Source: Dialister sp. (lineage in GTDB: Bacteria > Bacillota > Negativicutes > Veillonellales > Dialisteraceae). From it: 64,000 nt of DNA. Each line of letters opens with the position of its first letter. Position 1 is the stretch's first letter. The notes under the pieces are model-generated. The model had not been told where the DNA came from, did not search any database, and was given only the letters and a program-made list of their open reading frames with translations. Positions 1,068-49,677 of this stretch are shown here, in pieces. The position numbers and the translations under genes were made by a program. Where the stretch lies: the NCBI RefSeq assembly GCF_051885895.1, contig NZ_JBJEXP010000079.1:58146-122145 (forward strand). The letters are read 5' to 3'.

Positions 1068-1202
1068 GAAAAAATCTCCTTTCTCCTGAAAGTATCTGCT
1101 GTCTCTATGATACCGCATTTTGGAGATCAATGGTGGGATTCAATGACACCCCTGTTTCCGGACATACAGAAATCCCGGAACCGCAGGGGCTCCGGGATTT
1201 TT

Positions 1203-2114
1203 TTATTTCGACCAGTCGTGGTTGTACACGTCGTAGTTTTTCTTTGACTTCAGATAAAGGATGCTGGCATCAATGTCTTCAAGGAGCCGGTCCTTATCTC
1301 TGGGCAGGGTGGCTGCCAGACGGATATAGTTGGACACATGGTTGCTTCTGAAAATCATGTGCTCCGTTTCGGGAAGATCAAGGTGTTCGACGATGACCTT
1401 CAGCTCTTCCATGAGGCCGTAGGGCGGAAGAGGTTTGAATTCGCCGCGCTCGAACTGGTCTTTCAGTTCGCTGCCCCGATAGAGCATGAGGGAGAGGGCG
1501 GACAGGTGGGTGGGTTTGATTTCATTGATGGCATGGGCGGTGGCCAGGGCGTGTCTTTCACTGCCCGGAACGCCGGCAATGCCGAGAATGATCATAATGG
1601 AAAGATCCATGCCTGCTGCACGAACGCGTCTGCCCACTTCAATGGACTGCTCTCCGTTTACTCCTTTGCGGATATCCTTCAGGGTCTTTGAATCTCCGCT
1701 TTCCATGCCGTAGTAGAGAAGCTGGAGACCGGCCTGCTGCAGCTGCTTCAGTTCATCCAGAGACTTCCGGAGGATGTCGCCGGGGGCTGCATAGGAGGAG
1801 ACCCGTTCCAGGTTGGGGAAATATTTTTTCAGTGTATTCAGAATCTTGAGGAGCCGTTCTGTGGGAAGCACCAGTGCGTCGCCGTCAGCCAGGAATACAC
1901 GGCGTACGCCGTCCCTGTCTACGGAATAGGCAATGGCAATCTGGCGCATGATCTGTTCGTCAGAAAGCTTCTCAAACTTTACGCCTCTGTACATATTGCA
2001 GTAGGTGCAGCTGTTATGGGCACATCCTCTGGTAACCCGGAGGATGAAGCTGTCCGCTTCGCTTGGCGGACGGAAAACGGGGGTGTCATAATCGTCAAAA
2101 AATAAACCTGCCAT
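1203..2114 (-). CDS. Radical SAM protein, unknown substrate
   Basis: CxxxCxxC (CAHNSCTYC), FRPPSEA N-terminal motif, FLADGDAL; start moved to ATG 2114 after GAAAGGA RBS. Confidence 0.85.
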   Translation of the reverse strand: MAGLFFDDYDTPVFRPPSEADSFILRVTRGCAHNSCTYCNMYRGVKFEKLSDEQIMRQIAIAYSVDRDGVRRVFLADGDALVLPTERLLKILNTLKKYFPNLERVSSYAAPGDILRKSLDELKQLQQAGLQLLYYGMESGDSKTLKDIRKGVNGEQSIEVGRRVRAAGMDLSIMIILGIAGVPGSERHALATAHAINEIKPTHLSALSLMLYRGSELKDQFERGEFKPLPPYGLMEELKVIVEHLDLPETEHMIFRSNHVSNYIRLAATLPRDKDRLLEDIDASILYLKSKKNYDVYNHDWSK

Positions 2115-3267: not shown

Positions 3268-4251
3268 TCATTTCGTCAATTCAAAGGGACAGGCTTTTCC
3301 TTCCCTGAACTGCAGATAGGATTCAAAATTATTTTTTGACATATCATACACATCCTTTTCCGTGTAAAAGGCAGTGTGGGGCGTATGGATCACATTGGGG
3401 AAGGAGCGCAGGATGGCCAGCTTGTCATCATCCAGGGGCTGGTCTATATAGTTCAGCCGTTTGTGCTCGTTTTCCGTGACATCAAGACCGGCACCTCCTA
3501 TTTTGCCGGATTTGATGCCCCGGATGAGGGCGTCGGTGTCTACCAGCTTTCCCCGCGCCGTGTTAATGAGGATCACGTGGTCCTTCATTTTGGAAATGGT
3601 TTCATCATTGATGAGGTAATGGTTTTCTTCTGTGGCATTCATATGAAGGGTGATGATGTCCGATTCCCGAAGGAGGGTGTCCAGGTCCACATAGGTGACG
3701 AAGTTCTCTATGTCCCTGTTCCTGTACAGGTCATAGCCCAGAAGGCGGCAGCCGAAGCCGCGGAGGTGGCGGGCCACGGTGCTTCCGATATGGCCGGTGC
3801 CGATGATGCCTACGGTGGAGTCCGATATTTCCAGTCCCATTTTTCCTTGCAGCGTGAAATCGTTACAGCGGGAAGACTCAATGATCAGTTTCAGCTTTCG
3901 GCTGCAGGCCAGCATGAGCATGATGGCATAATTGGCCACGCTGTTTGGCGGATATCCCGTGTTACTTACGCGGAGCCCGATTTTTTTCGCATGGGCCGTA
4001 TCTACATGATCATAGCCGATGGTACGGCAGAGGATGTATCGAATTCCCGCTGCCTTTGCCCGGTCCAGAAGGGCCGCGTCCACGGAGGTGGACTCCATGA
4101 TGCTGATAGCATCAAACCCTTTTGACAAAGGAAGGGTATCCGATGAAAACTGCTCTTCCGTATAGGCAAAGGGTACACCATATTCACCGGAAAGCTTCCG
4201 GCAGATATCCAATTCGTCAAATTTTCGAAGTCCATAAAAGAAAATGCCCAT
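3268..4251 (-). CDS. D-isomer-specific 2-hydroxyacid dehydrogenase (D-lactate dehydrogenase-like)
   Basis: GIIGTGHIG Rossmann motif, LINTARG, GLDV, HTPHTAFYT; ATG 4251 after GAGGTG RBS. Confidence 0.88.
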   Translation of the reverse strand: MGIFFYGLRKFDELDICRKLSGEYGVPFAYTEEQFSSDTLPLSKGFDAISIMESTSVDAALLDRAKAAGIRYILCRTIGYDHVDTAHAKKIGLRVSNTGYPPNSVANYAIMLMLACSRKLKLIIESSRCNDFTLQGKMGLEISDSTVGIIGTGHIGSTVARHLRGFGCRLLGYDLYRNRDIENFVTYVDLDTLLRESDIITLHMNATEENHYLINDETISKMKDHVILINTARGKLVDTDALIRGIKSGKIGGAGLDVTENEHKRLNYIDQPLDDDKLAILRSFPNVIHTPHTAFYTEKDVYDMSKNNFESYLQFREGKACPFELTK

Positions 4252-4492
4252 GAGGATCACCTCGTCTGTTTTAAGAAAGTCCTTTACTAAAACCGGAATC
4301 CCGTTTTTGTTATTTTACTCCCTTTTAAATGGCGGAAGCAATGGAAAATCACGTTAGCTGCTCCCTATCTGCGGGGGACCTGGTGTAGAAGGGGATGGCT
4401 GTCGGCTGGTCTATAAAACTCCGGCGTATTTATTAGTGTGCTGCCTTCATTCTCCATTTTCTATTTTCATTTTTTATTCATTCATTTCCCTG

Positions 4493-4521
4493 TTTACCAC
4501 GCTTTACCACAGTGATATAAT
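4493..4521 (+). promoter_or_regulatory. sigmaA-type promoter of gltB
   Basis: TTTACC-N17-TATAAT. Confidence 0.6.
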
Positions 4522-4547
4522 ACAAAATACAACTAAAGTTTTCCGAA

Positions 4548-4610: not shown

Positions 4611-7600
4611 ATGGGAGAAATATGGAGGGATCTGCCCCAGCCCCAGGGGCTCTATGATCCGAGAAATGAGCATGATGCCTGCGGCATCGGCTTTGTGGCA
4701 AATATTAAAGGAAAAAGGTCCTATGGGATTGTGGATGATGCGCTGAAAATTCTGGAAAATCTGAAGCATCGCGGCGGCGAGGGAGCAGACCAGAAGAGCG
4801 GAGACGGCGCAGGCATCCTGACCCAGATTCCCCATGAATTCTTCCAGCGGGAATGCGAAGTGCTGGGCTTTCATCTTCCTCCAGAAGGCGAATACGGCGT
4901 AGGCATGATTTTTGCCCATCGGTACAGGGATTTCCGGGAGGAGCAGAAGCGCATCTTCGAAGACATTGTGAAGGAAGAAGGGCAGACCGTACTGGGCTGG
5001 CGGGAAGTGCCTATCGACGAAAGCCTTATCGGCGAAGAAGCCAAGCGGATACGTCCCCATTTCCTGCAGGTTTTCATCGGCCGGGATCCCTCCATTAAGG
5101 AGCCCATGGATTTTGAGAGAAAGCTCTATCTGATCCGACGGCTGGCAGAAAAGAAGATTATCCCCCTGTCGGAAGGCATGGGCACCGATTTCTATATTGC
5201 CAGTCTGTCGTCCCGCACCATTGTATACAAGGGCATGCTTACCAGCGACCAGATGCGCCATTTCTATCTGGATCTTTCAGATCTGGATTTCAAGACAGCC
5301 ATGGCTCTCGTGCATTCCCGGTTCAGCACCAATACTTTCCCCAGCTGGGCCAGAGCCCATCCGAACCGCTATATCGTGCATAACGGGGAAATCAATACCA
5401 TTCAGGGAAATATCAACTGGCTGAATGCCAGAGAAAGCAAATCCCGGCCTTCCGACTATCCGGAACTGGCCAAGGCATTCCCCGTGGTAGATGCTACGGG
5501 AAGCGACTCCGCCATGTTTGACAACTGTCTGGAATATCTCCATATGGCCGGCCATTCCCTGGCCCATGCCATGATGGTCATGATTCCGGAACCCTGGGAA
5601 AAGAATCCTTCCATGAGCCAGGAAAAGAAAGATTTCTACCGCTATCATAATTTCATGATGGAACCCTGGGATGGGCCGGCGGCCATCTGCTTCTGCGACG
5701 GCGTGGTTATCGGCGGTATGCTGGACAGAAACGGACTTCGCCCTGCCCGGTACTATGTGATGAAGGATGACCGGGTGATCCTGTCTTCCGAAGTAGGCTC
5801 CGTACCGGTCAGCCAGGAGGATGTGCTCTACAAGGGCCGACTGGAACCGGGGAAAATTTTCCTTATTGATACATCCCAGCAGCGCATCGTGGGAGATGAG
5901 GAAATCAAGCACAACATGGCCAAGGCTCACCCCTACGGCGACTGGTGCAGGGAACATATTCTGGATCTGAAGGATCTGGAGAAAAAGGAAGTGAAGAAGC
6001 CGCTTCCGGCGGAACTGCTGGAGCAGCAGCGGGCGTTCGGCTACACCCAGGAGGATATGCGGGATATGATTATCCCCATGGCCCAGGATGGAAAAGATCC
6101 GGTGGGCGCTATGGGCATGGACTCCCCGCTTCCCGTGCTTTCGGAAAAGCCGCGCCTCCTCTATGACTATTTTCAGCAGAATTTTGCCCAGGTCACCAAT
6201 CCGCCCATTGATGCCATCCGGGAGAAAATCGTAACTTCCTCCACCGTATATGTGGGGAACATGGCCAATATCATGGATCCCGATGAAAAGGGCACGGCAG
6301 CCCTTGCCATGGACCGTCCCCTGCTGACCAATGAAGAAATGGAAGCGGTGAAGGAACTGAAGGACGAACGCCTCCGCCCGGTGGTGCTTTCCCTCCTGTA
6401 TCCGGCGGAAGGGAAGGGAGAACTCCAGAAGGCACTGGACGCTCTTTTTGATAAGGCACTTCAGGCAGTGAAGGACGGACATAATATTCTCATCCTCTCC
6501 GACCGCGGCGTGGACCGGGATCACCTGGCCATTCCTGCTCTTTTGGCGTCGGCGGGGCTGCATAACTTCCTCATCCGGGAAAAGGTGCGCCCGGACGTGG
6601 GCATTATCCTGGAATCAGGAGAACCGAGGGAAGTCCATCATTTCTGCACCCTTATCGGCTACGGCGCCACCGCCATCAATCCCTATCTTGCCCTGGATAC
6701 GGCAGGGGATCTGGCGGAAAAGGGCCGGCTTGGCGGGAAGACGGCAGAGGAAGCGCAGGAAAATTACATGAATGCTTCCGTAAAGGGCATCCTGGCGGTC
6801 ATGTCGAAAATGGGGATTTCCACGGTAAAAAGCTATCACGGTGCCCAGATTTTTGAAGCCGTAGGCATTGGGAAAGAAGTGGCCGATACCTTCTTCGGGC
6901 ATACCGCTTCTCCTGTAGGGGGCATGGGCATTGCGGATATCGAAGAGGAAAACCGGCGCCGCCATGAAGAGGCTTATGGTAAAAAGAGAGGCCTTCCTGC
7001 CGGGGATATTTTCAAATACCGCAGAAACGGCGACGAACCCCATATCCTGACAGCAGAAGCTATCCGCCTTCTCCAGCAGGCCTGCCGCAGCGGCAGCTAT
7101 GAACTGTATAAAGTCTATGCCAAAAAAGTGAATGAGCCTCTCATCCGGCTCCGGGATCTCCTGGATTTCACCTATCCTGCCGGATGCAGCATTCCTATTG
7201 AAGAAGTGGAAAGCGTGGAATCCCTTGTCCGCCATTTCCGCACCGGCGCCATGAGCTACGGCGCTCTCAGCAGGGAAGCCCACGAATGTATTGCCAGAGC
7301 CATGAACTCCCTCCACAGCCGAAGCAATACCGGAGAAGGCGGGGAGGATGCGGAGCGGTTTGCTCCCCTGCCCGACGGCAGCAGCATAAATGATGAAATC
7401 AAGCAGGTGTCCACGGCCCGCTTCGGCGTCACCGGCAATTACCTGGTTCATGGATCGGAAATCCAGATCAAGTGCGCCCAGGGAGCCAAGCCCGGCGAAG
7501 GCGGACATCTTCCGGGCAGCAAGGTGGATCCTGCCATTGCCCGCACCAGGCACTCCACGCCCGGCGTATCTCTCATTTCCCCTCCGCCCCATCATGATGT

Positions 7601-17566: not shown

Positions 17567-18735
17567 TCAGGCTGGCATTTCTTTCTCTTTTCCGGCGCCC
17601 TCTCCGGCAGTTTCTTCTTTTTCTTCTCATTGCCGTTACGGCGGCGCTGCCTGTGTTTATCCTGCAGACGGCCGGCGGACTTTACGGCGGCATTAACCGG
17701 GCGGTAAGCCCTTTCCCCATCCTGGCCGGAGCCAGGGGTTCCGCCTACCAGCTGGTGCTGAATACTGTCTTTTTACGGGATCGGCCTATAGGAAATATTC
17801 CCTACGGAGAAATGGAGAAGCTGGAGGAAAGCGGCAGGACACAGGCAGTCTATCCCCTGGCCTTTGGCGATAATTACCGGGGCTTTCGCATCGCCGGCAC
17901 GGATCCGTCTCTTTTCAGCTACCGGCCTGTAAAAAATAAGGCACCCTGGCTGGAAATAGGGGAAGGGCAGGCTTTCCAGGAAGAAGGGGAAGCAGTCATC
18001 GGCAGCGAGACAGCCCGTCTGACCGGACTTAAAATAGGAGATACCTTCCAGTCTATCCATGGCAGTTCTTCCAAGGGACATGCCCACAATCATCCTTTCC
18101 GGGTGACAGGCATTCTGAAGCCTGTGGGAGGTCCCTACGATACGGCCATTTTTATTGATATGAAAGACGTATGGGAAGCCCATGGGGAAAACGAAGAAGC
18201 CCGTCGGGAGGTCACCGCTCTTCTGGTTGTGCCCAAAGGCTATAAGGAGGCCATGGAGCTTCTGGCTTCCTACCAGAAGAACAGGGATGTGCAGATGGTT
18301 TTCCCCTCCCAGTCTGTCATTTCCCTCTATGCTATGGTAGGGCAGACAAAGCATTTCTGGGAAATCTTTGTCACCGCTCTTCTGGCCATGTCTCTTCTGA
18401 TTACCCTTCTGGTCATGTACTGGAGCGGCCTTTCCCGGATAGGGGAACTGGCCCTGCTGGAAGCCCTGGGGGCAGGAAAAGGAAAAATCCGTCAGTTCCT
18501 TCTGGCAGAACAGGGGCTCCTGCTCCTGTTCGGAAGCTCCTGCGGCTGGCTTATGGGTTATGGAGCCAGTCTTCTGGCAGCCCGTATGGTATCAGGGGCC
18601 GCCGCCATTACCATGACGACTTCACCGGACTGGAGAGGATTTCTCATGATTCCTGCAGTTACCCTGATAGGTACCGCCGCAGGTCTCCTGCCTGCCTTTC
18701 TCCTGGGAAGAAAGGATGTATCGCCGTACCTGTGA
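17563..18735 (+). CDS. FtsX/MacB-like ABC permease with His-rich periplasmic loop
   Basis: 1+3 TM topology, HGSSSKGHAHNHPF; ATGA overlap with ATPase. Confidence 0.88.
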   Translation: MIRLAFLSLFRRPLRQFLLFLLIAVTAALPVFILQTAGGLYGGINRAVSPFPILAGARGSAYQLVLNTVFLRDRPIGNIPYGEMEKLEESGRTQAVYPLAFGDNYRGFRIAGTDPSLFSYRPVKNKAPWLEIGEGQAFQEEGEAVIGSETARLTGLKIGDTFQSIHGSSSKGHAHNHPFRVTGILKPVGGPYDTAIFIDMKDVWEAHGENEEARREVTALLVVPKGYKEAMELLASYQKNRDVQMVFPSQSVISLYAMVGQTKHFWEIFVTALLAMSLLITLLVMYWSGLSRIGELALLEALGAGKGKIRQFLLAEQGLLLLFGSSCGWLMGYGASLLAARMVSGAAAITMTTSPDWRGFLMIPAVTLIGTAAGLLPAFLLGRKDVSPYL

Positions 18736-18764
18736 GATACCGGCGGCAGCCGCAAAGCGGCCTC

Positions 18765-18794
18765 TTGACAAAATCGGCCCCGTGAGCCTATACT
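18765..18794 (+). promoter_or_regulatory. sigmaA promoter of aro leader/operon
   Basis: TTGACA-N18-TATACT. Confidence 0.75.
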
Positions 18795-18825
18795 AAACTA
18801 ACTTCTAACGAAAGGAGAGGGCACG

Positions 18826-18942
18826 ATGAGACTTGATTCCATGAATAAAGAAATGGCATATGGCGTCTTTGGCTGGGGCTATTATTATGGCTTCGGTTAT
18901 TTTTGCTGCGCCTGCCATGAGTCTCGTGCCCTTTTCAGATAA
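18826..18942 (+). CDS. Aromatic-amino-acid leader peptide (38 aa) MRLDSMNKEMAYGVFGWGYYYGFGYFCCACHESRALFR
   Basis: AAAGGAG RBS 8 nt upstream; 9 aromatic codons in residues 12-26; lies between promoter and terminator upstream of aroF. Confidence 0.85.
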   Translation: MRLDSMNKEMAYGVFGWGYYYGFGYFCCACHESRALFR

Positions 18943-18958
18943 AGCAGTTTTCGAAATG

Positions 18959-18995
18959 AAAGGACAGACTCATGGGAGCCTGTCCTTTTCTTTTT
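18959..18995 (+). terminator. Attenuator terminator (3:4 helix) of the aro leader
   Basis: AAAGGACAGACTC-ATGG-GAGCCTGTCCTTT then TCTTTTT. Confidence 0.85.
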
Positions 18996-19082
18996 GAAGG
19001 ATAGTAGGATGGAAGTTAGAAGGAGTGGGGCGATTGTCCCGTAGCATTGAAGGAGCCCTGAAAGGGCACAGGAGGAAACATC

Positions 19083-20099
19083 ATGATTATTGTAATGAAA
19101 CAGAATGCACCGCTTACCGCTATTGAATCCCTGGAACAGGAAATGAGGGACCGCGGATTCCAGGTAGACCGCAGCAAAGGTTCCAGCAAGGTAGTCCTTG
19201 GCCTGGTGGGAGATACGTCCGGACTGGATGAACGGGATTTCCTCAGTAATCCCTGGGTGGACAAGGTCATGCGGGTGCAGGAGCCTTATAAACGGGCCAG
19301 CCGTGCTTTTCACCCGGCAGATACCGTGGTGGATGTGAAAGGCGTCAAAATCGGCGGGAAGAAGCTGGTGGTCATGGCAGGTCCCTGCTCCATCGAAACG
19401 CCGGAGCAGATTGGCGGCATTGCCAAGGCAGTCAAAGCTTCCGGTGCAGCGGTTCTCCGCGGCGGGGCTTTCAAACCGAGAACATCTCCCTATTCCTTCC
19501 AGGGACTGGGAGAAAAAGGGCTGGATATGCTGATTTCTGCTGCCCGGAAAGAGGACATGCCGGTGGTGACTGAACTCATGAGCGCTGATAAGATCGGCAT
19601 GTTCCTGGAAAAAGGCGTAGATATCATCCAGATCGGTGCCAGGAATATGCAGAATTTTGACCTGCTGAAGGCGGTAGGCCGTCTGAATGTACCGGTACTG
19701 CTGAAGCGGGGTATGTCAGCTACCATTGAGGAATGGCTCATGAGTGCGGAATACATTATGTCCGAAGGCAATCACAATGTAATTCTCTGCGAACGGGGCA
19801 TCCGCACCTTTGAAAAGGCTACCAGAAATACACTGGATCTGTCGGCGGTGGAAGTGGTTAAGGAAAAGAGCCATCTGCCGGTTATCGTAGATCCCAGCCA
19901 CGCCACCGGTCACAGGGAAATGGTGCCGGCCATGGCTATGGCTGCTATTGCGGCCGGTGCCGATGGTATTATGTGTGAAGTTCATAATGATCCGGAACAT
20001 GCATGGTGCGATGGAGCGGAATCCATTACGCCGGAGACTTTTGATGACCTCATGGGACGGCTGAAACAGCTGGCACCCATTGTGGGAAGAGAGCTCTGA
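19083..20099 (+). CDS. aroF: DAHP synthase type I-beta with N-terminal ferredoxin-like regulatory domain
   Basis: [45 protein letters not shown]. Confidence 0.95.
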
Positions 20100-20135
20100 C
20101 GGCGGAAGCCCTGCATGCCGTTTCGGAATGCGCAG

Positions 20136-20166
20136 AAGGCAGGGCTCCCCGGGGCTCTGCCTTTTT
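20136..20166 (+). terminator. Terminator-like hairpin between aroF and tyrA
   Basis: AAGGCAGGGCTC / GGGCTCTGCCTT stem with G-U pairs followed by TTT. Confidence 0.45.
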
Positions 20167-20211
20167 GCACATACATATCATCGATTCAATTTACATATAA
20201 AGGAAACCAAC

Positions 20212-21072
20212 ATGAACAGTGACTTTAGAAAGATTCCCATAGCGGTTATCGGACTGGGCCTTATGGGAGGCTCCTTTGCCAAAAGACTGAAGGAGCTGGG
20301 CCATCCGGTCATCGGCCTGAACCGAACGAAGAGCGTGGCGGAAAAGGCTTTGGCTCTGGGAATGGTAGACACCATAGACCCCGGCGAACTGAAGAAAGCG
20401 GAAATCGTGATTTTCTGCACGCCGGAGAAGGGGACGCTTTCTTTTATCCGGGAGCACATCTCCCTGCTGAATGAAAAGGCGGTGCTGACGGATATTGCCG
20501 GCGTGAAGAACGGATTTGCCAAAGAGGTATCTTCGCTCCTGCCGGAAGGAATGGACTTTGTGTCCGGCCATCCCATGTGCGGAAGAGAAGGGGCGGGCCT
20601 CCTGCAGGCAGACGGTGCCATATTCGACGGTGCCAATTACGTGCTCATTCCGGAACCCTGGAACAGCAGGGAACACCTGGAACTGATCAAAGGCATGGCC
20701 CTGGAGCTTGGCTGTGCCCATGTACCGGTGGTGACAGCCGAGGAACATGACCGGGCAATTGCCTACACCAGCGATCTGCCCCATGTGCTGGCTACGTCTC
20801 TGATGAACAGCGCCTCCTACTCGGAAAAGACGAAGTACTTTATCGGAGGTTCCTTCAAGGATGAGACGAGGGTGGCAGATATTAATGAAAAGCTCTGGAC
20901 ATCCCTGTTCCTGGCCAACCGGGAGAAACTGCTGGAAGAAATCGACCGCTTCAGCGGTTCCCTGCAGCAGATCCGGCAGGCCATAGCAGAGGGCAGCGAG
21001 GAAGATATGACCGCTTTTCTGAAAGAGGCGGGAAGAAGAAGAAGGGAAATGATGCATCATGGCAGCTGTTAA
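20212..21072 (+). CDS. tyrA: Prephenate dehydrogenase
   Basis: IGLGLMGGS, TDIAGVK, GHPMCGREGAG, HDRAIAYTSDLPH; start ATG 20212. Confidence 0.92.
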   Translation: MNSDFRKIPIAVIGLGLMGGSFAKRLKELGHPVIGLNRTKSVAEKALALGMVDTIDPGELKKAEIVIFCTPEKGTLSFIREHISLLNEKAVLTDIAGVKNGFAKEVSSLLPEGMDFVSGHPMCGREGAGLLQADGAIFDGANYVLIPEPWNSREHLELIKGMALELGCAHVPVVTAEEHDRAIAYTSDLPHVLATSLMNSASYSEKTKYFIGGSFKDETRVADINEKLWTSLFLANREKLLEEIDRFSGSLQQIRQAIAEGSEEDMTAFLKEAGRRRREMMHHGSC

Positions 21073-22126
21073 TGTGGATCTGGGAAAGGATTCCTATACC
21101 ATTGAAATAGAAAGAGGACTTCTTGACCGGGTGGGCGGAAAAATCCGAGCCCTTACGAAAGCGGATAAAATCGCAGTCATTACCGACGATCACGTGGCAC
21201 CGCTCTATGGGGAAAGGCTCAGTCATGCCCTGGAGGCCGAGAGATTTGAGACGCGGATTATCGCCATTCCTGCGGGAGAGGCCAGCAAGAACCTGAAGGT
21301 CCTGTCCGATGTGTACGATGCCATGTCGGAATTCGGCATGTCCAGAAGCGATGCGGTGGTTACCCTTTCCGGCGGCGTGCCGGGGGATCTCGGCGGCTTT
21401 GCGGCAGCCACCTACATGAGGGGGATTCCCTTCTTCCAGATACCGACTACCATTCTGGCCCAGATCGACAGCTCTGTAGGCGGGAAGGTGGCAGTGGATC
21501 TTCCCAGCGGGAAAAATCTGGCCGGCGCCTTCTACCAGCCAAAGGGCGTATTCATCGATCCGGATCTTTTACAGACACTGCCTGCCCGCTATGTGCATGA
21601 CGGACTGGCGGAAGCGGTGAAATACGGATGCATCGGTGACGCGGAGCTTTTTGAAATCTTTGAGTCCCTGAAAACGGAAAAAGACCTGGAGGATCATATG
21701 GAGGAAATCATCCTTCACAGTGTGCTGCAGAAAACCCGCGTCGTGGAGGAAGATGAATTTGATACGGGGAAACGTCAGATTCTCAACTTCGGACATACCA
21801 TCGGTCATGCAATAGAACGGTATTTCCACTATTCCACCTTTACCCACGGGGAAGGCGTAGCCATAGGCATGAGCCTTCTTACGGAGCAGACAGAAAAGTT
21901 GGGACTTACGGAAAAAGGAACCGCCGACCGCCTGATCCGGGTGCTTCGTAAACTGTCCCTGCCCACATCTATCGGCGTACCGGCAGAGGAACTGATTCCA
22001 CTGGCCATGCATGACAAGAAGAGAAGAGGAAAGGAAATCACTCTGGTAGTGCTGAAGAAAATCGGAGCCTGCGAGCTTGTGACCGTTCCTACAGATGAAC
22101 TTTCCCGGTATATTGTGACAGGCTGA
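21059..22126 (+). CDS. aroB: 3-dehydroquinate synthase
   Basis: GEASK, SGGVPGDLGGF, TTILAQIDSSVGGK, LNFGHTIGHAIE. Confidence 0.95.
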   Translation: MAAVNVDLGKDSYTIEIERGLLDRVGGKIRALTKADKIAVITDDHVAPLYGERLSHALEAERFETRIIAIPAGEASKNLKVLSDVYDAMSEFGMSRSDAVVTLSGGVPGDLGGFAAATYMRGIPFFQIPTTILAQIDSSVGGKVAVDLPSGKNLAGAFYQPKGVFIDPDLLQTLPARYVHDGLAEAVKYGCIGDAELFEIFESLKTEKDLEDHMEEIILHSVLQKTRVVEEDEFDTGKRQILNFGHTIGHAIERYFHYSTFTHGEGVAIGMSLLTEQTEKLGLTEKGTADRLIRVLRKLSLPTSIGVPAEELIPLAMHDKKRRGKEITLVVLKKIGACELVTVPTDELSRYIVTG

Positions 22127-22136
22127 GGAGGATGCC

Positions 22137-23414
22137 ATGCAGATGACCATTGCGCCTGCGCCTTTGGCAGGCACCATCCGGGTCCCCTCTTCCAAGAGCA
22201 TGACCCACAGGGAAATCATTGCCGCCGCTCTGGCAGAAGGGAAGACAGAAGTGACCGGCGTGACCTGGTCGGAAGATATTGAAGCCACTGTGCGCATTCT
22301 TTCCCTGCTGGGAGCTTCCATCGAAAAACAGGAGGGCAGAGAGGGCTTGACCCTTTCCATCAAAGGGGGCCTCAAAAAGCAGGAAGGCATCCTTTCTGCA
22401 GACGCCGGGGAATCGGGCTCAACCCTCCGCTTTCTGATTCCGCTGGGACTGGTTTCCGGCAGCCATGTCATATACAGAGGACATGGACGGCTGTCCGAAC
22501 GGCCGCTCACCCCCTACTACCGTTTGTTTGAGCAGAAAAAAATTGCCTTCCGGACGAAAGGCGGCCTGCCTCTGGAAGTGGAGGGAACCCTTTCCGGCGG
22601 CGTGTATGAGCTGCCAGGCAATGTGAGCTCCCAGTTCTTTACGGGGCTTCTCTTTGCCCTGCCGCTGGTAAAGGGAGACTCTCTCCTGAAGAGTACTACC
22701 CCGCTTGAGTCCAAAAGCTATGTGGATATGACACTGGATACGCTGGCCCGCCATGGTATCAGGATTCTGGAAAAAGAAGCGGGTCTCTATGAAATACCGG
22801 GAGGACAGCACTATCAAAACGGCTCCTTTGCGGTGGAGGGAGACTATTCCCAGGCGGCTTTCTGGCTGACGGCCGCTCTTTCCGGCGGTCATATTACTCT
22901 TACCGGCCTGTCTGACAGTTCCTTGCAGGGAGACAAGGCCATCCTTTCTATTCTGAAGGATATGGGAGGCGTGATCAGGAAGACAGAAAAGGGGATAGAG
23001 GCGCAGACCGGCAGCCTCCACGGCACGGTGGTGGATGCGGAAAATATACCGGACCTGGTGCCTGCCCTGGCGGCTCTGGCGGCTGTGAGCGAAGGTAAAA
23101 CGGAAATTATCCACGCCGGAAGGGTGCGCCTTAAAGAATGCGACCGCCTCCATGCCATGGCAGTGGAGCTTTCCCGTCTGGGAGCGGAAGTGGAAGAAAA
23201 GCCGGAGGGTCTGGTCATCTGCGGGAAGCCGTCTCTTTCCGGCGGTACCGTTTCCTCCTGGAATGACCACCGCATCGCCATGGCCCTGGCCTCCATTACA
23301 CCCCGCCTCACGGGGCCTCTGACCATCGAAGGCGCAGAAAGCGTAAAGAAATCCTATCCCCGCTTCTGGGAGGATTTCCGGAAAGTGGGCGGAAGGACGG
23401 CAGAAAAGCGGTAG
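22137..23414 (+). CDS. aroA: EPSP synthase
   Basis: PSSKSMTHR, GESGSTLRF, SSQFFTGL, RLKECDR, NDHRIAM. Confidence 0.95.
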   Translation: MQMTIAPAPLAGTIRVPSSKSMTHREIIAAALAEGKTEVTGVTWSEDIEATVRILSLLGASIEKQEGREGLTLSIKGGLKKQEGILSADAGESGSTLRFLIPLGLVSGSHVIYRGHGRLSERPLTPYYRLFEQKKIAFRTKGGLPLEVEGTLSGGVYELPGNVSSQFFTGLLFALPLVKGDSLLKSTTPLESKSYVDMTLDTLARHGIRILEKEAGLYEIPGGQHYQNGSFAVEGDYSQAAFWLTAALSGGHITLTGLSDSSLQGDKAILSILKDMGGVIRKTEKGIEAQTGSLHGTVVDAENIPDLVPALAALAAVSEGKTEIIHAGRVRLKECDRLHAMAVELSRLGAEVEEKPEGLVICGKPSLSGGTVSSWNDHRIAMALASITPRLTGPLTIEGAESVKKSYPRFWEDFRKVGGRTAEKR

Positions 23415-23420
23415 CGGAGG

Positions 23421-23517
23421 GCGCCTGACAGCTTCAAAAGAAGTAAGCGCAGCTCCGCTTTGCGGCAGCCGCCGCGAAGCTGGCAGTTTTTTACATCACC
23501 TGCGCCGTCAGGTGCGC
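23421..23517. repeat. GC-rich intergenic palindromic element (REP/MITE-like)
   Basis: Imperfect terminal inverted repeat GCGCCTGAC / GTCAGGTGCGC; internal 20-mer matches 18741-18760 (reverse strand) at 19/20. Confidence 0.4.
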
Positions 23518-23550
23518 TTCACCGGCTCACCATTATAACAGGAGAAGACC

Positions 23551-24651
23551 ATGAGCAATACATTTGGAGAAACACTGAAAGTAACAATTTTCGGGGAATC
23601 CCACGGCACTGCCATTGGAGCAGTGATTGACGGGCTGCCTCCCGGCATTTCCATAGACTGGGACGAAGTGAGGCGGGAAATGGCCCGCCGGGCGCCGGGA
23701 AGTTCAAACCTGGCTACGCCCCGAAAGGAAAAGGACCAGATTGAAATCCTTTCCGGCTATTTCCGGGACCATACGACAGGAACACCTCTGGCTATGGAAA
23801 TCCGGAATACAAACCAGCATTCCGGGGACTATGATATTCTGAAAGACCATATGCGTCCGGGCCATGCCGATTATACAGGCTTTGTCAAATACGGCGGATT
23901 TAATGACTATCGGGGCGGCGGCCACTTTTCCGGACGCATTACGGCGCCGCTGACATTTGCCGGAGCCATTGCCCGGCAGGTGCTGGAAAAGGAAGGCATT
24001 TACATTGGAGCCCATGCGGCAGATGTCCACGGCATCCGGGACTGCCCTTTCCATCCCCTGGGAGAGGAGAAGGCGCTCTTTGACCGTCTGGATAGGAAAA
24101 AGCTTCCTGTGATTGACGAGGAGAAAGGAAAGGCCATGGAAGAAGCCATCCTGGCTGCACAGAAGGAGGGGGACTCTGTGGGAGGCATGGTGGAATGCAT
24201 GATCTGCGGCCTTCCTATGGGGCTGGGAGATCCTTTCTTTGATTCCCTGGAAAGCGAAATGTCTCATATGATGTTCTCCGTGCCTGCGGTGAAAGGCATT
24301 GAGTTCGGGAGCGGATTCGGGTTTGCTTCCCTTTTCGGCTCAGAGGCCAATGACAGCCTCCATTATGCCGGGGAAAAGCCTGTTTCCCTCACCAATCATA
24401 ACGGCGGCGTGCTGGGAGGCATTTCCAGCGGAAGCCCCGTCCTTTTCCGGCTGGCGGTAAAGCCCACCGCTTCCATCGGGAAACGGCAGAAAACCATTGA
24501 TATTGCAAAGAAGGAAGATACAGAACTTTCCATCGGCGGACGCCATGATCCCTGCATTATTCCCCGGGCCATCCCGGTGATTGAAAATGCAGCGGCTCTG
24601 GTGATTCTGGATCTGCTCCTTACAGACAGGAGGAATTCCCATGTCAGATAA
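23551..24651 (+). CDS. aroC: Chorismate synthase
   Basis: FGESHG, RPGHADY, GGHFSGRITA, NHNGG, KPTASI, GRHDPCI. Confidence 0.95.
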   Translation: MSNTFGETLKVTIFGESHGTAIGAVIDGLPPGISIDWDEVRREMARRAPGSSNLATPRKEKDQIEILSGYFRDHTTGTPLAMEIRNTNQHSGDYDILKDHMRPGHADYTGFVKYGGFNDYRGGGHFSGRITAPLTFAGAIARQVLEKEGIYIGAHAADVHGIRDCPFHPLGEEKALFDRLDRKKLPVIDEEKGKAMEEAILAAQKEGDSVGGMVECMICGLPMGLGDPFFDSLESEMSHMMFSVPAVKGIEFGSGFGFASLFGSEANDSLHYAGEKPVSLTNHNGGVLGGISSGSPVLFRLAVKPTASIGKRQKTIDIAKKEDTELSIGGRHDPCIIPRAIPVIENAAALVILDLLLTDRRNSHVR

Positions 24652-25477
24652 AATACTTCGGGTTGGATGCTACGGCGCCAAAGGTTCCTATACCTATGAA
24701 GCCATGGAAAAACAGTTTGGCGAAAGGAAAAGGGAGGAATCCTATTTTCCCCTTTTCGAAGATGTGCTGAAAGCGGTGCAGGAGGGAGACATCGATTACG
24801 GCGTAGTGCCCATTGAAAATTCTTCCACCGGCGGCATTACGGAGGTGTATGACCTCATCCAGCGCTACGGCTGTGCCGTGGTGGGAGAGCAGGTGGTCAA
24901 AATCGAGCACAACCTGCTGGGCCTTCCGGGAGCGAAACTGGAAGATATTGACACGGTTTTCTCCCATCCCCAGGGATTTGCCCAGTGCCGTCCCTTCTTC
25001 AACAAGCATAGGAACTGGACATTGAAGCCCTATTTTTCCACTTCCCGAAGTGCGGAAAAAGTCGCCCAGGATGGAAAGAAAAACCAGGCCGCCGTGGCCA
25101 GCAGGACAGCGGCACGGCTGTATGGACTTACGGTGCTGGCAGAAAATATTTTCTTCAATGCCAGCAACTACACCCGATTCTTTATTATCGGGCCGAAAAT
25201 GGAAATCAAGCCGGAGGCGGATAAAATCACCCTTGTGATTTCCGTGCGCCATGAACCTGGCGCTCTTTACCATGTGCTGGGCTATTTCTTCTACGGCGGC
25301 ATGAACATGACCCACCTGGAATCCCGCCCCATGGAAGGAAGGCCTTTTGAATACTTCTTCCATATTGATGTCATGGGCCGCCTGGAGGATCCCTCCAATG
25401 CCCAGACACTCAGGGGACTGAAATCCATGTGTACCTATTTCAAAATTCTGGGAAACTATCCTGCCTGCAGGGCGTAA
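24641..25477 (+). CDS. pheA: Prephenate dehydratase (no chorismate mutase domain)
   Basis: VPIENSSTG, SHPQGFAQC, NYTRF, C-terminal ACT with LESRP. Confidence 0.92.
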   Translation: MSDKILRVGCYGAKGSYTYEAMEKQFGERKREESYFPLFEDVLKAVQEGDIDYGVVPIENSSTGGITEVYDLIQRYGCAVVGEQVVKIEHNLLGLPGAKLEDIDTVFSHPQGFAQCRPFFNKHRNWTLKPYFSTSRSAEKVAQDGKKNQAAVASRTAARLYGLTVLAENIFFNASNYTRFFIIGPKMEIKPEADKITLVISVRHEPGALYHVLGYFFYGGMNMTHLESRPMEGRPFEYFFHIDVMGRLEDPSNAQTLRGLKSMCTYFKILGNYPACRA

Positions 25478-25572
25478 AGAAAATCTGAGGAGAAAGCTCT
25501 ATTTGCCAGGGGCCTTCTCTTCCGTACCTCCTGCTCCATGCAGCGGTCCATCGCAATAGAAAGGAGCCGACC

Positions 25573-26379
25573 ATGAAACTGGGCCTTTTGGGAGAAGTGC
25601 TGGGACACAGCCTGTCTCCCGTGATTCATGAGAAATTATTTAAAAAACTGGGCATTGCCTCCACCTATGAACTGATTGAAATTCCGAAAGCTTCCTTCCG
25701 GACAGATCTGCCCTCCCTGCTTTCTTCCTATGACGGGCTGAACGTGACCATTCCCTACAAGGTGGATGTCATCCCTTTCCTGGATGAATTGTCCAAAGAA
25801 GCGGAGACCATAGGCGCAGTGAACACCATCGCCCATAAGAACGGGAAACTTCTGGGACTGAATACGGACTATACAGGATTTGCCCGCACCCTTTCGCGCA
25901 TCCACTGCCAGGTGGAAGGGAAGGATGCGGTGGTTCTGGGGCATGGCGGCGCTTCCCGGGCCATTATCCAGTGCCTTTTTGATGAAAGGGCGAAAGAAAT
26001 TCATGTCATCAGCCGCCATCCGGAAAAGGTGGATCCGGATTTTCTTTCCTTTGCGGAGAAAAGAAATGTGAAAATCGAAGGCTATGACAGTCTGCAAGGG
26101 AAAGAGGATAATTATCTTCTGGTTAATGCCACGCCGGTAGGCATGTATCCCCGTACAGGCGTCTCTCCTGTTCCTGCCGCTGTGGCCGCCTCTTTCCCCA
26201 AGGTTGTGGATATTATCTATAATCCGGCGGAGACGAAGCTTCTGCAGGATGCGGAAACAAGCAGCCGCTCCAACGGCATGTACATGCTTGTCATGCAGGC
26301 CATGGCGGCGGAAGAAATCTGGCTGGGCAGGAAAATTCCCGAATCGGTGACGGCGGCGATTGTGGAGGAAATGATATGA
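25573..26379 (+). CDS. aroE: Shikimate dehydrogenase
   Basis: GHSLSP, NVTIPYK, GAVNT, NTDY, GHGGA, NATPVGM. Confidence 0.95.
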   Translation: MKLGLLGEVLGHSLSPVIHEKLFKKLGIASTYELIEIPKASFRTDLPSLLSSYDGLNVTIPYKVDVIPFLDELSKEAETIGAVNTIAHKNGKLLGLNTDYTGFARTLSRIHCQVEGKDAVVLGHGGASRAIIQCLFDERAKEIHVISRHPEKVDPDFLSFAEKRNVKIEGYDSLQGKEDNYLLVNATPVGMYPRTGVSPVPAAVAASFPKVVDIIYNPAETKLLQDAETSSRSNGMYMLVMQAMAAEEIWLGRKIPESVTAAIVEEMI

Positions 26380-26870
26380 CGAAAAATATTGTTCTCATCG
26401 GCATGCCGGGCTGCGGGAAAACCACCTTCGGCCAGGCGCTGGCCCATGCACTGCACCGCCCTTTTATAGATGCCGATGTTTATCTGGAACAGAGGGAAAA
26501 GAGAACCATCCCCAGCCTTTTTGCGGAAAGCGAGACGGTCTTCCGGGATGCGGAGGAACGAACCATCCGGGAACTGTCCCAGCAGGAAGGAATCATCATC
26601 GCCACTGGCGGAGGCGTTGTGAAGCGGGATATCAATATCCAGAGGCTTCATAAAAAAGGACTGATCATTTTCATTGACCGGAAGGCGGAAGACATCATTA
26701 CCGATGTGGAAGTGGAAAAACGGCCGCTTCTGAAGAATGGGCCGGATCAGGTGTTTACACTGTATAAGGAAAGAATCAGCCTTTACCGCAGAGCAGCGGA
26801 CAGGACCCTGGAAAACCGGGGCAGCCTGGAGGAAGTGATGGCCCGCCTGCTGGCAATGGTGGAAGGATAA
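26376..26870 (+). CDS. aroK: Shikimate kinase
   Basis: IGMPGCGKTT, FRDAE, ATGGG, RPLL. Confidence 0.95.
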   Translation: MTKNIVLIGMPGCGKTTFGQALAHALHRPFIDADVYLEQREKRTIPSLFAESETVFRDAEERTIRELSQQEGIIIATGGGVVKRDINIQRLHKKGLIIFIDRKAEDIITDVEVEKRPLLKNGPDQVFTLYKERISLYRRAADRTLENRGSLEEVMARLLAMVEG

Positions 26871-27239: not shown

Positions 27240-27320
27240 TGATTTTCTGCACTGCGCCGGAAGGCAAAAATGGTATCTTTCTGTTAAAGGCCGCTGTGCG
27301 GCCTTTTTTCATTTTCCCCC

Positions 27321-27392: not shown

Positions 27393-27475
27393 GACAAAGA
27401 TGTCTGATAGGAGTATTCATATCAGGCTTTTTCTTTTGGACAAAGGCGCCCGGGAATTTTCCGGGCGCCTTTGTC
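27393..27475 (+). promoter_or_regulatory. Putative ANTAR-target leader with terminator
   Basis: GAC-AAAGAT-GTC and GAC-AAAGGC-GCC hexaloops (A1,G4); terminator 27402-27437; 15-bp hairpin 27439-27475. Confidence 0.5.
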
Positions 27476-27536
27476 ATTGGAAGGAAAGCCGGTGATTCCA
27501 TCAGACCTCTTTTGTTCAGGAGAGGGAGTGGGTTTT

Positions 27537-29351
27537 ATGAAAAAAATGGAAGCGGTTGTACGAAAGTGGCCTCTGCTTCTGGCTGCCCTGACCATGCCGA
27601 CCGTGGTTATGGCTGCAGATACGGAAGGCCGGTATTCTTCGGTGGATACCATCTGGGTGCTTTTAGGCGCTATCCTGGTTTACTTTATGCAGCCCGGGTT
27701 CGCCATGGTGGAAACAGGACTGACCCGTGCAAAGAATGCGGGCAATATCGTCATGAAGAATTTCATGGATTTTGCTCTGGGCACCGTGGTATTCTGGTTT
27801 CTGGGCTTTGGTCTCATGTTTGGTACGGACATCGGCGGCATCATCGGCACGCCGGACCTCTTTGTCACCCATTTCCAGGTGCCTGATGATGCAGGCTATA
27901 CACCCATGACATACCTCTTCTTCCAGACGGTATTCTGTGCGACCTCGGCTACCATCGTTTCCGGGGCTATGGCAGAACGGACCAAGTTTTCCGCCTACTG
28001 CATCTATTCCGTAGTGATTTCTCTTCTGATTTATCCTATTTCCGGACACTGGATCTGGGGCGGCGGCTGGCTCTCCCAGCTGGGCTTCCATGATTTCGCC
28101 GGCTCCACCTGCGTTCATCTGGTAGGCGGTGTATGTGCCCTGGTAGGAGCATGGCTCCTGGGACCAAGAATCGGCAAGTACAATAAGGACGGCAGCGTAA
28201 ATGCCATTCCGGGCCACAGCATTACCCTGGCCTGCCTGGGCATGTTCATCCTGTGGATGGGCTGGTTCGGATTCAACGGCGGCTCCACGGTTTCCATGAC
28301 CGGTGATGAAGTCATCGAATCTGCAGGCCATATCATGATTACCACCAACCTGGCTGCAGCAGTAGCTGCCTGCACCACCATGATCGTTACCTGGGTGAAA
28401 TACGGCAAACCTGATGTTTCCATGACACTGAACGGCGGCCTGGCCGGCCTCGTTGCCATTACCGCCGGATGCGATACCGTAACGGTACCCGGATCCTTCT
28501 TCATCGGCCTTATCGCCGGCGTATTCATTGTCTATGCTGTTGAATTCATTGACCAGAAAATGAAAATCGATGATCCCGTAGGCGCTGTAGCAGCTCACGG
28601 CGGATGCGGCGCACTGGGCACCATCCTCACCGGTTTCTTCTCCGAATCAGACGGTCTTCTCTATACGGGAGATCCTCATTATCTCTTCATCCAGATCCTG
28701 GGTGTAGTGGTTGTAGCTCTTTATGTATTCATTGCCATTAATATTGTATTCCGCCTCATCCGTGCCACCATCGGTCTCCGCGTCAGCAGAGAAGAAGAAA
28801 TCAACGGCCTGGACTTCGAGGAACACGGTCTGGCTTCCGCTTATGCCGATTTCATGATGGTTCCGGAAACAGCAGAGGAAAAGATAGAAGCCGGCAAGGC
28901 TCCGGCCAATGCAGTAGAAATCCCCATGGACAAGGAAGTACCGGAAACGGTGGTACCGAAAGAACCGCCGGCAGACGGACACCGTCTCTACTGTGTCACC
29001 ATTATTACTTCGGACAAGCGGTTTGAAATTCTGAAAGCTTCCATGGAAGCCATCGGCATTACCGGCATGACTGTCACCAAAGCCCTCGGGTTCGGTCTGG
29101 AAAAGGGACAGACCCAGATGTACCGCGGCGCTGCCGTTTCTGCCAAACTTCTGCCTAAGGTGCGTGTGGATATCGTCGTATCCAAGATCTCCCCCAGAAC
29201 AGTGATTGAAGTGGCCAAGAAAGCCCTGTATACCGGCAAGTACGGCGACGGCAAGGTCTTTGTTACCACTGTGGATAATGCAGTGAAGATCCGTACCGGC
29301 GAAGAAGGCTACGATGCCCTGCAGGATTATCCGATTGAAGAAAGTAAATAA
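27537..29351 (+). CDS. amtB: Ammonium transporter fused to a C-terminal PII (GlnK-like) domain
   Basis: FMQPGFAMVETG, HDFAGSTCVH, WFGFNGGS, DDPVGAVAAHG; then GFG...YRG...LLPKVRVDIVV...TGKYGDGKVF...IRTGE. Confidence 0.95.
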   Translation: MKKMEAVVRKWPLLLAALTMPTVVMAADTEGRYSSVDTIWVLLGAILVYFMQPGFAMVETGLTRAKNAGNIVMKNFMDFALGTVVFWFLGFGLMFGTDIGGIIGTPDLFVTHFQVPDDAGYTPMTYLFFQTVFCATSATIVSGAMAERTKFSAYCIYSVVISLLIYPISGHWIWGGGWLSQLGFHDFAGSTCVHLVGGVCALVGAWLLGPRIGKYNKDGSVNAIPGHSITLACLGMFILWMGWFGFNGGSTVSMTGDEVIESAGHIMITTNLAAAVAACTTMIVTWVKYGKPDVSMTLNGGLAGLVAITAGCDTVTVPGSFFIGLIAGVFIVYAVEFIDQKMKIDDPVGAVAAHGGCGALGTILTGFFSESDGLLYTGDPHYLFIQILGVVVVALYVFIAINIVFRLIRATIGLRVSREEEINGLDFEEHGLASAYADFMMVPETAEEKIEAGKAPANAVEIPMDKEVPETVVPKEPPADGHRLYCVTIITSDKRFEILKASMEAIGITGMTVTKALGFGLEKGQTQMYRGAAVSAKLLPKVRVDIVVSKISPRTVIEVAKKALYTGKYGDGKVFVTTVDNAVKIRTGEEGYDALQDYPIEESK

Positions 29352-30009: not shown

Positions 30010-30270
30010 TCAAAGAAGCAGGGAAGAGAAGAGTACCCGTGCAGGAATGGCAAAGAGAGCTCCGCTTGGTGGGAAGGAGCGCAGGATCGCATGGAGAAGA
30101 TGGCCTCTGAGCTTGATCTGCCGAATGGTGAAGCAGTCCGGGAGTCTCCCGTTACAGAGACAGGGTATCAAGGCATGTCCGGCGTACCTGCAGAGGCTTT
30201 TCCGGTGACGGAAAAGCGAAATTGGGTGGTAACACGAGTATCTCGTCCCGAAAAGGGACGGGATTTTTTT
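30010..30270 (+). ncRNA. Met T-box riboswitch upstream of metA
   Basis: Promoter TTGACT-N17-TAAAAT (29971-29999); AGTA/GAA loop-E, AGAGA bulge, specifier GAAG-ATG-G at 30100, GGGTGGTAACACG at 30224, terminator 30240-30270. Confidence 0.92.
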
Positions 30271-33659: not shown

Positions 33660-33920
33660 TTCATAAAGGCAGTGAAGAGAAGAGTACATGAAACAATCCG
33701 GCCAAGAGAGCCCCGTCCGGTGAAAAGGGGTGCGGAAGGTTTGATGGAAGATGGCCTCTGAGCCTGGTGCGCTGAATGATGAGGCGGCCCGGGAGCTCCC
33801 GTTACAGAGACAGGGTATCAAGGCGGCAGCCGGCGTACCTTATGAGATCGGTGAAGCGATTCACCGGTGAAATTGGGTGGTAACACGGTCCTCCGTCCCT
33901 TTCGGGATGGAGGATTTTTG
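33660..33920 (+). ncRNA. Met T-box riboswitch upstream of metQ
   Basis: Promoter TTGACT-N17-TATAGT (33622-33650); specifier GAAG-ATG-G at 33751; GGGTGGTAACACG at 33875; terminator 33889-33919. Confidence 0.92.
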
Positions 33921-49576: not shown

Positions 49577-49677
49577 GGCAGAAGGGAAGAATTCCGACCT
49601 CAATGCATAGAATTTCCATAGGTGAAAAAGTCCCCTTTTCATGTTTCTTTTTCTATGATACAATTACATTCATCTAC

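Follow-up and report, generated by a model that had tools for sequence, protein, structure and literature searches.

How is the common pathway of aromatic amino-acid biosynthesis controlled in Dialister sp., a member of the Negativicutes? The question is raised by a stretch of 64,000 nucleotides (nt) of this organism (RefSeq assembly GCF_051885895.1, contig NZ_JBJEXP010000079.1, positions 58,146 to 122,145 of the forward strand), called the window here, in which the aro operon is preceded by a region (18765-19082) that an original prediction had read as a leader-peptide attenuator sensing Tyr, Phe and Trp. All positions given for this leader and its operon are those of the window, on the + strand. 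Judged from its sequence and from that of its relatives, the leader is very probably a ribosome-mediated transcription attenuator of the trpL/pheL, or leader-peptide, type that controls an aromatic amino-acid operon.

A sigma-70-type promoter, TTGACA-N18-TATACT, is located at 18765-18794 (11 of 12 consensus matches). Transcription is predicted to start at about 18801-18803, i.e. about 25 nt 5' of a 38-codon small open reading frame (sORF). The Shine-Dalgarno (SD) sequence of this sORF, AAAGGAG, occupies 18810-18816, with its GGAG 9 nt 5' of the ATG; promoter and ribosome-binding site were thus both present where they had been predicted. The sORF extends from 18826 to 18942 (ATG at 18826, TAA at 18940-18942) and encodes the 38-amino-acid peptide MRLDSMNKEMAYGVFGWGYYYGFGYFCCACHESRALFR. 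Translation confirmed that residues 12-26 contain 5 Tyr, 3 Phe and 1 Trp. This cluster of regulatory codons, from Y12 to F26, spans 18859-18903, with the Trp codon TGG at 18874-18876, and a further aromatic residue of the sORF, F37, lies outside it. The 15-residue segment YGVFGWGYYYGFGYF, in which 9 of 15 residues are aromatic, was the densest among about 85,000 stop-free segments of that length obtained when all six frames of the 64 kb were translated.

The original prediction had proposed three mutually exclusive helices in this leader, 1:2, 2:3 and 3:4, and all three were recovered at the expected places by folding and by complementarity. The minimum free energy (MFE) fold of 18796-19000 has an energy of -76.8 kcal/mol (z = -6.1), and none of 200 shuffled sequences folded as well. 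In this fold segment 1 (18814-18833), which is the 5' strand of the anti-antiterminator and comprises the SD, the AUG and the first codons, pairs with 18920-18935 to form helix 1:2, and the SD and AUG are sequestered. Segment 2 (18914-18935) has two partners, since 18920-18935 pairs with segment 1 and 18915-18924 pairs with segment 3. The latter helix, the antiterminator 2:3, is a perfect 10-bp complement between CCATGAGTCT (18915-18924) and AGACTCATGG (18966-18975), with a duplex energy in the window of -19.3 to -19.9 kcal/mol; it includes the motif CAUGAG (18916-18921) paired with CUCAUG (18969-18974). Segment 3 (18966-18975) is itself part of the 5' arm and loop of an intrinsic terminator (18959-18995), composed of a hairpin (18959-18988) and of the U-tract TTTTCTTTTT, which extends to 18995.

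One more hairpin, called the core hairpin here, was found at 18870-18899 (GGCUGGGGC / GGCUUCGGUU). It is built by the W-G ... G-F-G codons of the W-G-Y-Y-Y-G-F-G stretch, is followed by a U-rich tract, and tops the 1:2 domain in the MFE fold; it was flagged as terminator-like. With its U-rich tail this hairpin is a candidate RNA-polymerase pause site, which would synchronise the polymerase and the ribosome.

Other short pairings were observed in the same region. Close to the sORF start, a second copy of CCAUGA, UUCCAUGA (18838-18845), offers a further possible partner for UCAUGGGA (18970-18977) of the terminator arm; its counterpart in the uncultured Dialister genome UMGS370 is UUUCAUGA. The 86-88 nt or so between the terminator and the aroF start (18997-19082) contain two small hairpins, at about 19026-19041 and 19055-19067, the second of which (GCCCUGAAAGGGC) adjoins the aroF SD. 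In the other Dialister genome hardly any of this stretch is conserved.

Relatives of the leader were searched for in two ways. First, the best 80 aroF loci of a species-representative genome collection were surveyed for an sORF located at most 300 nt upstream of aroF and containing at least 7 aromatic residues out of 12. Such an aromatic-rich sORF was present upstream of aroF in 32.5% of these 80 closest loci, the corresponding control figures being 1.25% (reverse strand) and 0.4% (shuffled sequences), and all 39 aromatic-rich candidates examined had a hairpin and a U-run after the sORF and before aroF. Leaders of a long class were FYSFFYFMFWGFYFSAGYFFCKK in clostridia, YVFTYFSWGYFYFSAGYFCYDK in Megasphaera and AYGVFGWGYYYGFGYFCC in the window. 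Those of several short classes (HFYFYFR, AYYYYYGY, YAYYFYFSY and YGYFYFSFTKF, all at aroF) have only aromatic codons and a terminator in common. Second, a DNA pattern encoding W-G-[FY]3-xx-G-Y-F, used irrespective of gene context, was found at at least 120 loci. Among the matches listed, about 75 are sORFs of 33-64 codons, and the next gene, where identified, is mostly aroF, otherwise pheA, aroE, aroK, tyrA or an operon encoding a LarA-family protein and a symporter. Family members were found in Clostridium, Clostridioides, Terrisporobacter, Intestinibacter, Tissierella, Alkaliphilus, Blautia, Caproiciproducens, Eubacterium, Trichococcus, Pelosinus, Megasphaera, Phascolarctobacterium and Dialister; altogether, homologues consisting of an sORF plus a terminator upstream of aromatic-biosynthesis genes occur in dozens of genera.

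The window sORF matched a hidden Markov model of 23 non-Dialister leaders with E = 6.7e-8, and was the sole significant match among 1,701 six-frame segments, the next one having E = 0.33. On these comparisons the window leader is a divergent member of a Firmicutes-wide family of aromatic leaders, with the core W-G-[FY]3-S-A-G-Y-F. The search that had been proposed as a check, for aromatic-rich sORFs with covarying helices upstream of aroF in relatives, was therefore positive, in Dialister and Megasphaera among others. The idea that such a leader is unusual for Negativicutes did not hold, as the family extends to Clostridium, C. difficile, Trichococcus and other Firmicutes. The family has remained without a name in databases: a profile of 25 leaders matched 123 protein clusters in 5.8 billion sequences, all of them unnamed or annotated as 'hypothetical protein' and none with a Pfam domain; neither NCBIfam nor Pfam has a model for the leader peptides; and no Rfam family matched 18600-19200 even at E ≤ 10, including Trp_leader, Phe_leader, His_leader, the Leu/phe leader and the T-box.

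Several loci of the survey have a particular organization. Intestinibacter bartlettii DSM 16795 carries family copies before three different operons. In Pelosinus fermentans (L118) two divergent leaders lie within 4 kb, at 893-1207 (+) and 4221-4535 (-), one of them before a shikimate kinase gene. A Phascolarctobacterium locus (L006; 587-732 and 877-3014) contains two aroF paralogues in tandem, whose products share about 60% identity with the window AroF; only the first is preceded by a leader (…AIEYGFYYAPVFNYYFSTGYFAWEK…) and a terminator, and this leader has no Trp codon. At five loci (L155, from I. bartlettii, L116, L141, L173 and L178) an aromatic leader and terminator precede genes for a 422-amino-acid LarA-family protein (Lar_N plus LarA_C) and a sodium:solute symporter; these leaders belong to Intestinibacter and a related Clostridium. 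The LarA/symporter operon is predicted to serve uptake and racemisation of an aromatic 2-hydroxy acid, e.g. phenyllactate, under Phe/Tyr control. Finally, aromatic-rich leaders and terminators were seen before Firmicutes-like aroF genes (58-60% identity) in two Treponema/Spirochaetaceae metagenome-assembled genomes (L021, L039) and in a genome labelled Bacteroides sp. CAG:927 (L034). Their occurrence in these non-Firmicutes bins suggests either horizontal transfer of the operon together with its leader, or mis-binning.

Alignment with MAFFT and RNAalifold yielded only the core hairpin, the registers of 1:2 and 2:3 shifting between lineages. Co-variation was therefore assessed by a permutation test, in which the duplex energies of cognate and non-cognate partners were compared over 57 loci with 10,000 permutations. 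For helix 2:3 (the segment 2 zone with the terminator 5' arm) the mean energy was -10.1 kcal/mol for cognate versus -8.0 kcal/mol for non-cognate partners. For helix 1:2 (the 5' part of the leader with SD, start and N-terminal codons, paired with the zone after the aromatic tract) it was -21.7 versus -13.4 kcal/mol. In both cases 0 of 10,000 permutations were as good as the cognate pairing (p ≤ 1e-4). In the alignment, AAUGAG:CUCAUU was swapped in some lineages for CUAAGAA:UUCUUAG, AGGAG:CUCUU or CCAAAAG:CUUUUGG, and 57 of 62 aligned members had a terminator with the conserved CUCAU element.

The segment 2 motif, (U)CUAAUGAG or (A/C)AUGAG, is read as F-S-N-E or F-L-M-S in the family and as H-E-S in the window. 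As it is kept while being read in different frames, segment 2 is constrained as RNA. Between the two Dialister genomes, conservation was concentrated in the -10 element, the SD and segment 1, the core, segment 2 and the terminator, and the spacers diverged. In clostridial members segment 1 corresponds to codons 4-7 (AUUAGAAAAGA) and is directly followed by a Phe codon.

Conservation of this kind could also be that of an untranslated structured RNA, a riboswitch or a protein- or tRNA-binding site, that would sense an aromatic metabolite or factor directly, the open frame being a by-product of a U-rich conserved RNA. The nucleotides of the core are indeed kept, down to third codon positions and to GC-rich codons that are rare: even in AT-rich clostridia GGC was found in 76 of 80 cases, AGC in 68 of 71 Ser codons and GCT in 67 of 74 Ala codons, followed again by GGC. 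These codons form the family core hairpin, (A)GCUGG.GC / GC.CUGGC(U), whose loop consists of three aromatic codons. Its inner 7 pairs were paired in 418 of 420 cells and pairing was 86% overall, compared with 31-48% when the partners were slid, with few double changes. Extensive long-range pairing accompanies this hairpin, and further RNA elements that may be aromatic-related have been put forward in Lactobacillales, upstream of aro genes. Nevertheless, a properly spaced SD-like motif and in-frame ATG were present in 57 of 57 family members, and the frame is open over 25-60 codons in spite of the variation in length. The stop codon is also constrained relative to segment 2, being never more than 15 nt upstream of it, and the terminator starts 13-65 nt past the stop. 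Phe and Tyr codons (TTY/TAY) interchange upstream of the Trp codon, at positions that the search pattern left free; this interchange keeps aromatic identity and is selection on the encoded amino acid. In addition, the unrelated-looking short leaders at aroF (HFYFYFR, AYYYYYGY, YAYYFYFSY) share nothing else than aromatic codons and a terminator, and Rfam provided no match. On this evidence we consider an untranslated RNA highly improbable.

The same conserved core could be viewed as a nascent arrest peptide, W-G-[FY]3-S-A-G-Y-F, that would respond, as TnaC does, to free aromatic amino acids or to another ligand and not to charged tRNA. In support of it, distant genera have the core in common to an unusual degree, its non-aromatic residues G, S, A and G included. 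However, G, S and A are kept as the specific codons (GGC, AGC and GCT) that build the hairpin stem, and the conservation of the W-G...S-A-G peptide is therefore largely accounted for by the stem. The window has G-F-G in place of S-A-G, and its hairpin (GGCUGGGGC / GGCUUCGGUU) keeps its pairing via G-U/G-C exchanges. The short-class leaders are devoid of the motif. The polarity is also unfavourable, as a biosynthetic operon should be switched on at amino-acid scarcity, which fits stalling at hungry codons. There is little chance that arrest by the nascent peptide accounts for these leaders. Least probable of all is that the sORF codes for a working small protein of hydrophobic or aromatic character (a membrane peptide or the precursor of a peptide that is made by ribosomes and modified after translation, a RiPP) merely co-transcribed with aroF, since, although the sequence is hydrophobic and aromatic and is called as a gene in some genomes (the 123 clusters of hypothetical proteins), its C-terminal tails are not conserved as peptide, the frame varies relative to the RNA motif, a terminator always follows, the antiterminator overlaps the end of the frame, several copies per genome each precede a different aromatic-pathway operon, and no Pfam or NCBIfam family exists.

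We therefore return to attenuation by a translated leader, for which the following course of events is proposed. By default, segments 1 and 2 would close a long hairpin with the core stem-loop at its tip, the 3:4 terminator would form, and transcription would stop at about 18995, before aroF. A ribosome loading before segment 2 is transcribed would open the 1:2 hairpin. When Tyr-tRNA and Phe-tRNA (possibly also Trp-tRNA) are plentiful, the ribosome would cross segment 2 and reach the stop codon while segments 3 and 4 are being made; the terminator would form and the operon would be off. When charged aromatic tRNA is scarce, the ribosome would stall in the 15-codon aromatic tract, 5' of segment 2. 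Segment 2 (CCAUGAGUCU) would then pair with the terminator 5' arm (AGACUCAUGG), and the polymerase would read through into aroF...aroK. During the stall, segment 1 would have to be held unpaired, presumably by a second ribosome, initiating or queued, or by sterics or kinetics. A second ribosome is invoked because segment 1 contains the SD and AUG of the leader itself and the aromatic codons begin at codon 12. Both translation of the sORF and its response to charged tRNA are inferred.

Two elements of the mechanism as originally proposed had to be modified. A ribosome at the stop codon had been supposed to cover segment 2. On the stop codon its footprint is about 18922-18955, which takes in no more of the arm engaged in 2:3 than its 3' edge; the ribosome would still block 2:3, sterically and because it has only just passed over the arm, and not by covering all of it. 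Stalling had been supposed to leave segment 2 free. The 1:2/2:3/3:4 attenuator is strongly supported by the comparative data, whereas a single stalled ribosome leaves 1:2 favoured.

The latter result is one of several points that weigh against the attenuator proposed here. First, whereas trpL has its hungry codons within segment 1, those of the window leader (18859-18903) are placed after segment 1 and before segment 2. Second, when one stalled ribosome was masked in equilibrium folding, 1:2 plus the terminator was still the MFE structure; in masked folding the antiterminator became the MFE structure only if segment 1 was masked as well and the stall was at codons 17-21. Third, a covariance model (R1) built from 60 non-Dialister sequences matched the window over a 37-nt core only (18873-18909; 31 bits, E = 0.07). 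This core match was the sole match of the model in the whole window, where about 5 codons fewer separate the core from segment 2 than in other family members. Fourth, part of the apparent conservation of the peptide is RNA structure, the core being kept at the nucleotide level including synonymous sites. Fifth, sensing of Trp is unproven, because the single, invariant Trp codon also sits in the conserved hairpin (UGG GGC ... GCU GGC). The proposal that one leader integrates Tyr, Phe and Trp is not established: codons for Tyr and Phe are abundant and interchange freely, but the only Trp codon is also structural, and in the sole analogue that has been tested, aroR of C. glutamicum (Phe-Tyr-Phe), limitation of Phe alone had an effect. 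Sixth, in a search of sequencing runs, the window sequence was found only in wastewater DNA metagenomes and in 0 RNA runs. Seventh, RNA-seq of C. difficile is ambiguous as to the 3' end of the short leader RNA, since isolated leader contigs stop close to the end of the sORF and do not extend to the terminator (see below).

It is conceivable, though on balance doubtful, that antitermination would need two ribosomes, one leading and stalled at aromatic codons, the other trailing or initiating and located on segment 1. The leader would then be a sensor of ribosome queues, distinct from trpL, and the family an undescribed Firmicutes-wide regulon of aromatic leaders with a doubly coded core, in which hungry codons would coincide with a pause or apical hairpin.

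C. difficile provided experimental hints. Premature termination has been reported in the 5' untranslated region of aroF in strain 630, at an element dissimilar to known riboregulators and for which no leader peptide or mechanism was proposed (Fuchs et al. 2021, PMC8237595). The C. difficile loci L081 and L087 carry at aroF a leader of the present family, MKGILKELTAKLYSFYYFMFWGFYFSAGYFFYK..., and a terminator, so that this orphan termination event occurs at the same type of locus. In the raw reads of one run, RNA 5' ends mapped some 10 nt 5' of the leader SD, and coverage was continuous into aroF. At 85% identity, one run gave full read-through and the other little coverage of the leader. Two apparent signs of attenuation were discarded: a drop in coverage after the leader at 95% identity was a mapping artefact of strain divergence, and a leader-only transcript read from a 0.21 share of words was due to single-nucleotide polymorphisms between strains. 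These RNA-seq data were consequently used only for the 5' end upstream of the SD and not as support for attenuation.

As for the isolated contigs mentioned above, L081 gave a 199-nt contig (6726-6924, depth 166) and very deep short contigs (6756-6897), which end near the sORF stop and segment 2, about 70-100 nt short of the predicted terminator. They may be a stable 5' fragment closed by 1:2, a product of pausing or processing, or an assembly artefact.

The genes that the leader would control were assigned with NCBIfam and Pfam. The first, aroF (19083-20099), encodes a 3-deoxy-D-arabino-heptulosonate 7-phosphate (DAHP) synthase with a ferredoxin-like regulatory (FXD) domain. Its closest relative, with 95% identity, is the AroF of the uncultured Dialister genome UMGS370 (L146), the next ones being from Veillonellaceae and Megasphaera. 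Between aroF and aroK lie tyrA, aroB, aroA, aroC, pheA and aroE, in that order, and the whole operon, aroF-tyrA-aroB-aroA-aroC-pheA-aroE-aroK, extends over 19083-26870, where aroK ends. No strong + strand terminator was found inside the operon, the first one being located at 27286-27306. Neither dehydroquinate dehydratase nor chorismate mutase was recognised among the operon genes. The operon covers all of the common aromatic pathway but one step, together with the branches to Tyr and Phe. The aro operon announced by the original prediction is thus present downstream of the leader; as dehydroquinate dehydratase was not recognised, it is not literally an entire shikimate operon.

Control of amino-acid genes in Clostridia, Negativicutes and some Bacilli is usually described as relying on T-boxes and on TRAP (trp RNA-binding attenuation protein). 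Four T-boxes had been announced in the window, and four T-box leaders were found by E-value (1e-11 to 1e-19), all on the + strand (30012-30253, 33663-33903, 46245-46439 and 63765-63958) and all just under the Rfam gathering cut-off (63-92 bits versus 93). Three of them precede, respectively, metA with genes for an ABC-transporter binding protein and a homocysteine S-methyltransferase, metQ, and a DctP/DctM tripartite ATP-independent periplasmic transporter; the fourth is at the window end. No aromatic-pathway gene follows any of the three T-boxes with visible downstream genes. Elsewhere in the window, a 626-codon frame at 27471-29351 (+) joins an Amt ammonium transporter to a P-II (GlnB-like) domain at the C-terminus, and a fluoride riboswitch at 49669-49752 (+) scored 35.9 bits, above the Rfam gathering cut-off.

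If the attenuator operates as proposed, it would fill a gap in the control of the common aromatic pathway in Clostridia, Negativicutes and some Bacilli, and would provide a mechanism for the orphan premature termination at C. difficile aroF, the family being present in medically relevant species. The leader would also be a regulon marker from which aromatic-related functions of neighbouring genes could be predicted, such as the LarA-family racemase and symporter of Intestinibacter. Dozens of 'hypothetical protein' annotations would have to be corrected, and a compact Phe/Tyr-responsive switch would become available for the engineering of anaerobes.

No account of the long-class aromatic leader family, or of such leaders in Negativicutes or Clostridia, was found in the full-text literature, subscription literature being outside this scope. 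The concept itself has precedents (aroR-aroF, uORFC-13-1 and the His leaders of Firmicutes), and the long-class family was not found described. The reference systems are the E. coli leaders trpL, pheL and hisL (Trp_leader, Phe_leader and His_leader in Rfam), which combine an sORF rich in codons for the end product, the 1:2/2:3/3:4 logic, an intrinsic terminator and, probably, a pause hairpin. The window leader differs from them in that its regulatory codons are apical, between segments 1 and 2, and in that segment 1 holds the leader's own SD and AUG. Moreover, the aromatic tract of the family is long and comprises two or three types of amino acid (9 of 15 residues are aromatic in the window, and about 15 of 25 at most in clostridia).

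The nearest functional parallel is aroR-aroF of C. glutamicum, in which a leader peptide with Phe-Tyr-Phe and a terminator precede the DAHP synthase operon and ribosome stalling raises read-through (Neshat et al. 2014, as related in PMC11802643; first noted in PMC4046766). According to the same account, aroR responds to limitation of Phe and not of Tyr (PMC11802643). It resembles the window leader by its mixed aromatic codons and by its terminator before a DAHP synthase gene. It differs, in a comparison made by description, by belonging to Actinobacteria and by having only three regulatory codons, and there is no sign in it of a W-G...S-A-G hairpin or of a 1:2 helix that sequesters the SD.

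Closer to Firmicutes, the uORFC-13-1 motif is found exclusively before aroF, in Acholeplasma and environmental sequences (24 representatives); it comprises a predicted upstream open reading frame with Phe codons just 5' of a terminator and is described as a U-run that encodes one Phe or more (Brewer et al. 2021, PMC8632094). Compared by description only, it shares with the window leader a frame with Phe codons and a terminator before aroF, in a lineage related to Firmicutes. Lastly, His-leader attenuators exist alongside T-boxes in Bacillus, in Peptostreptococcaceae, C. difficile among them, and in Erysipelotrichales (Naville & Gautheret 2010, PMC2965389; Ashniev et al. 2022, PMC9413887). They establish that attenuation by classical leader peptides occurs in Firmicutes, and they differ from the leader described here by the amino acid, by the operons and by their unrelated sequences.

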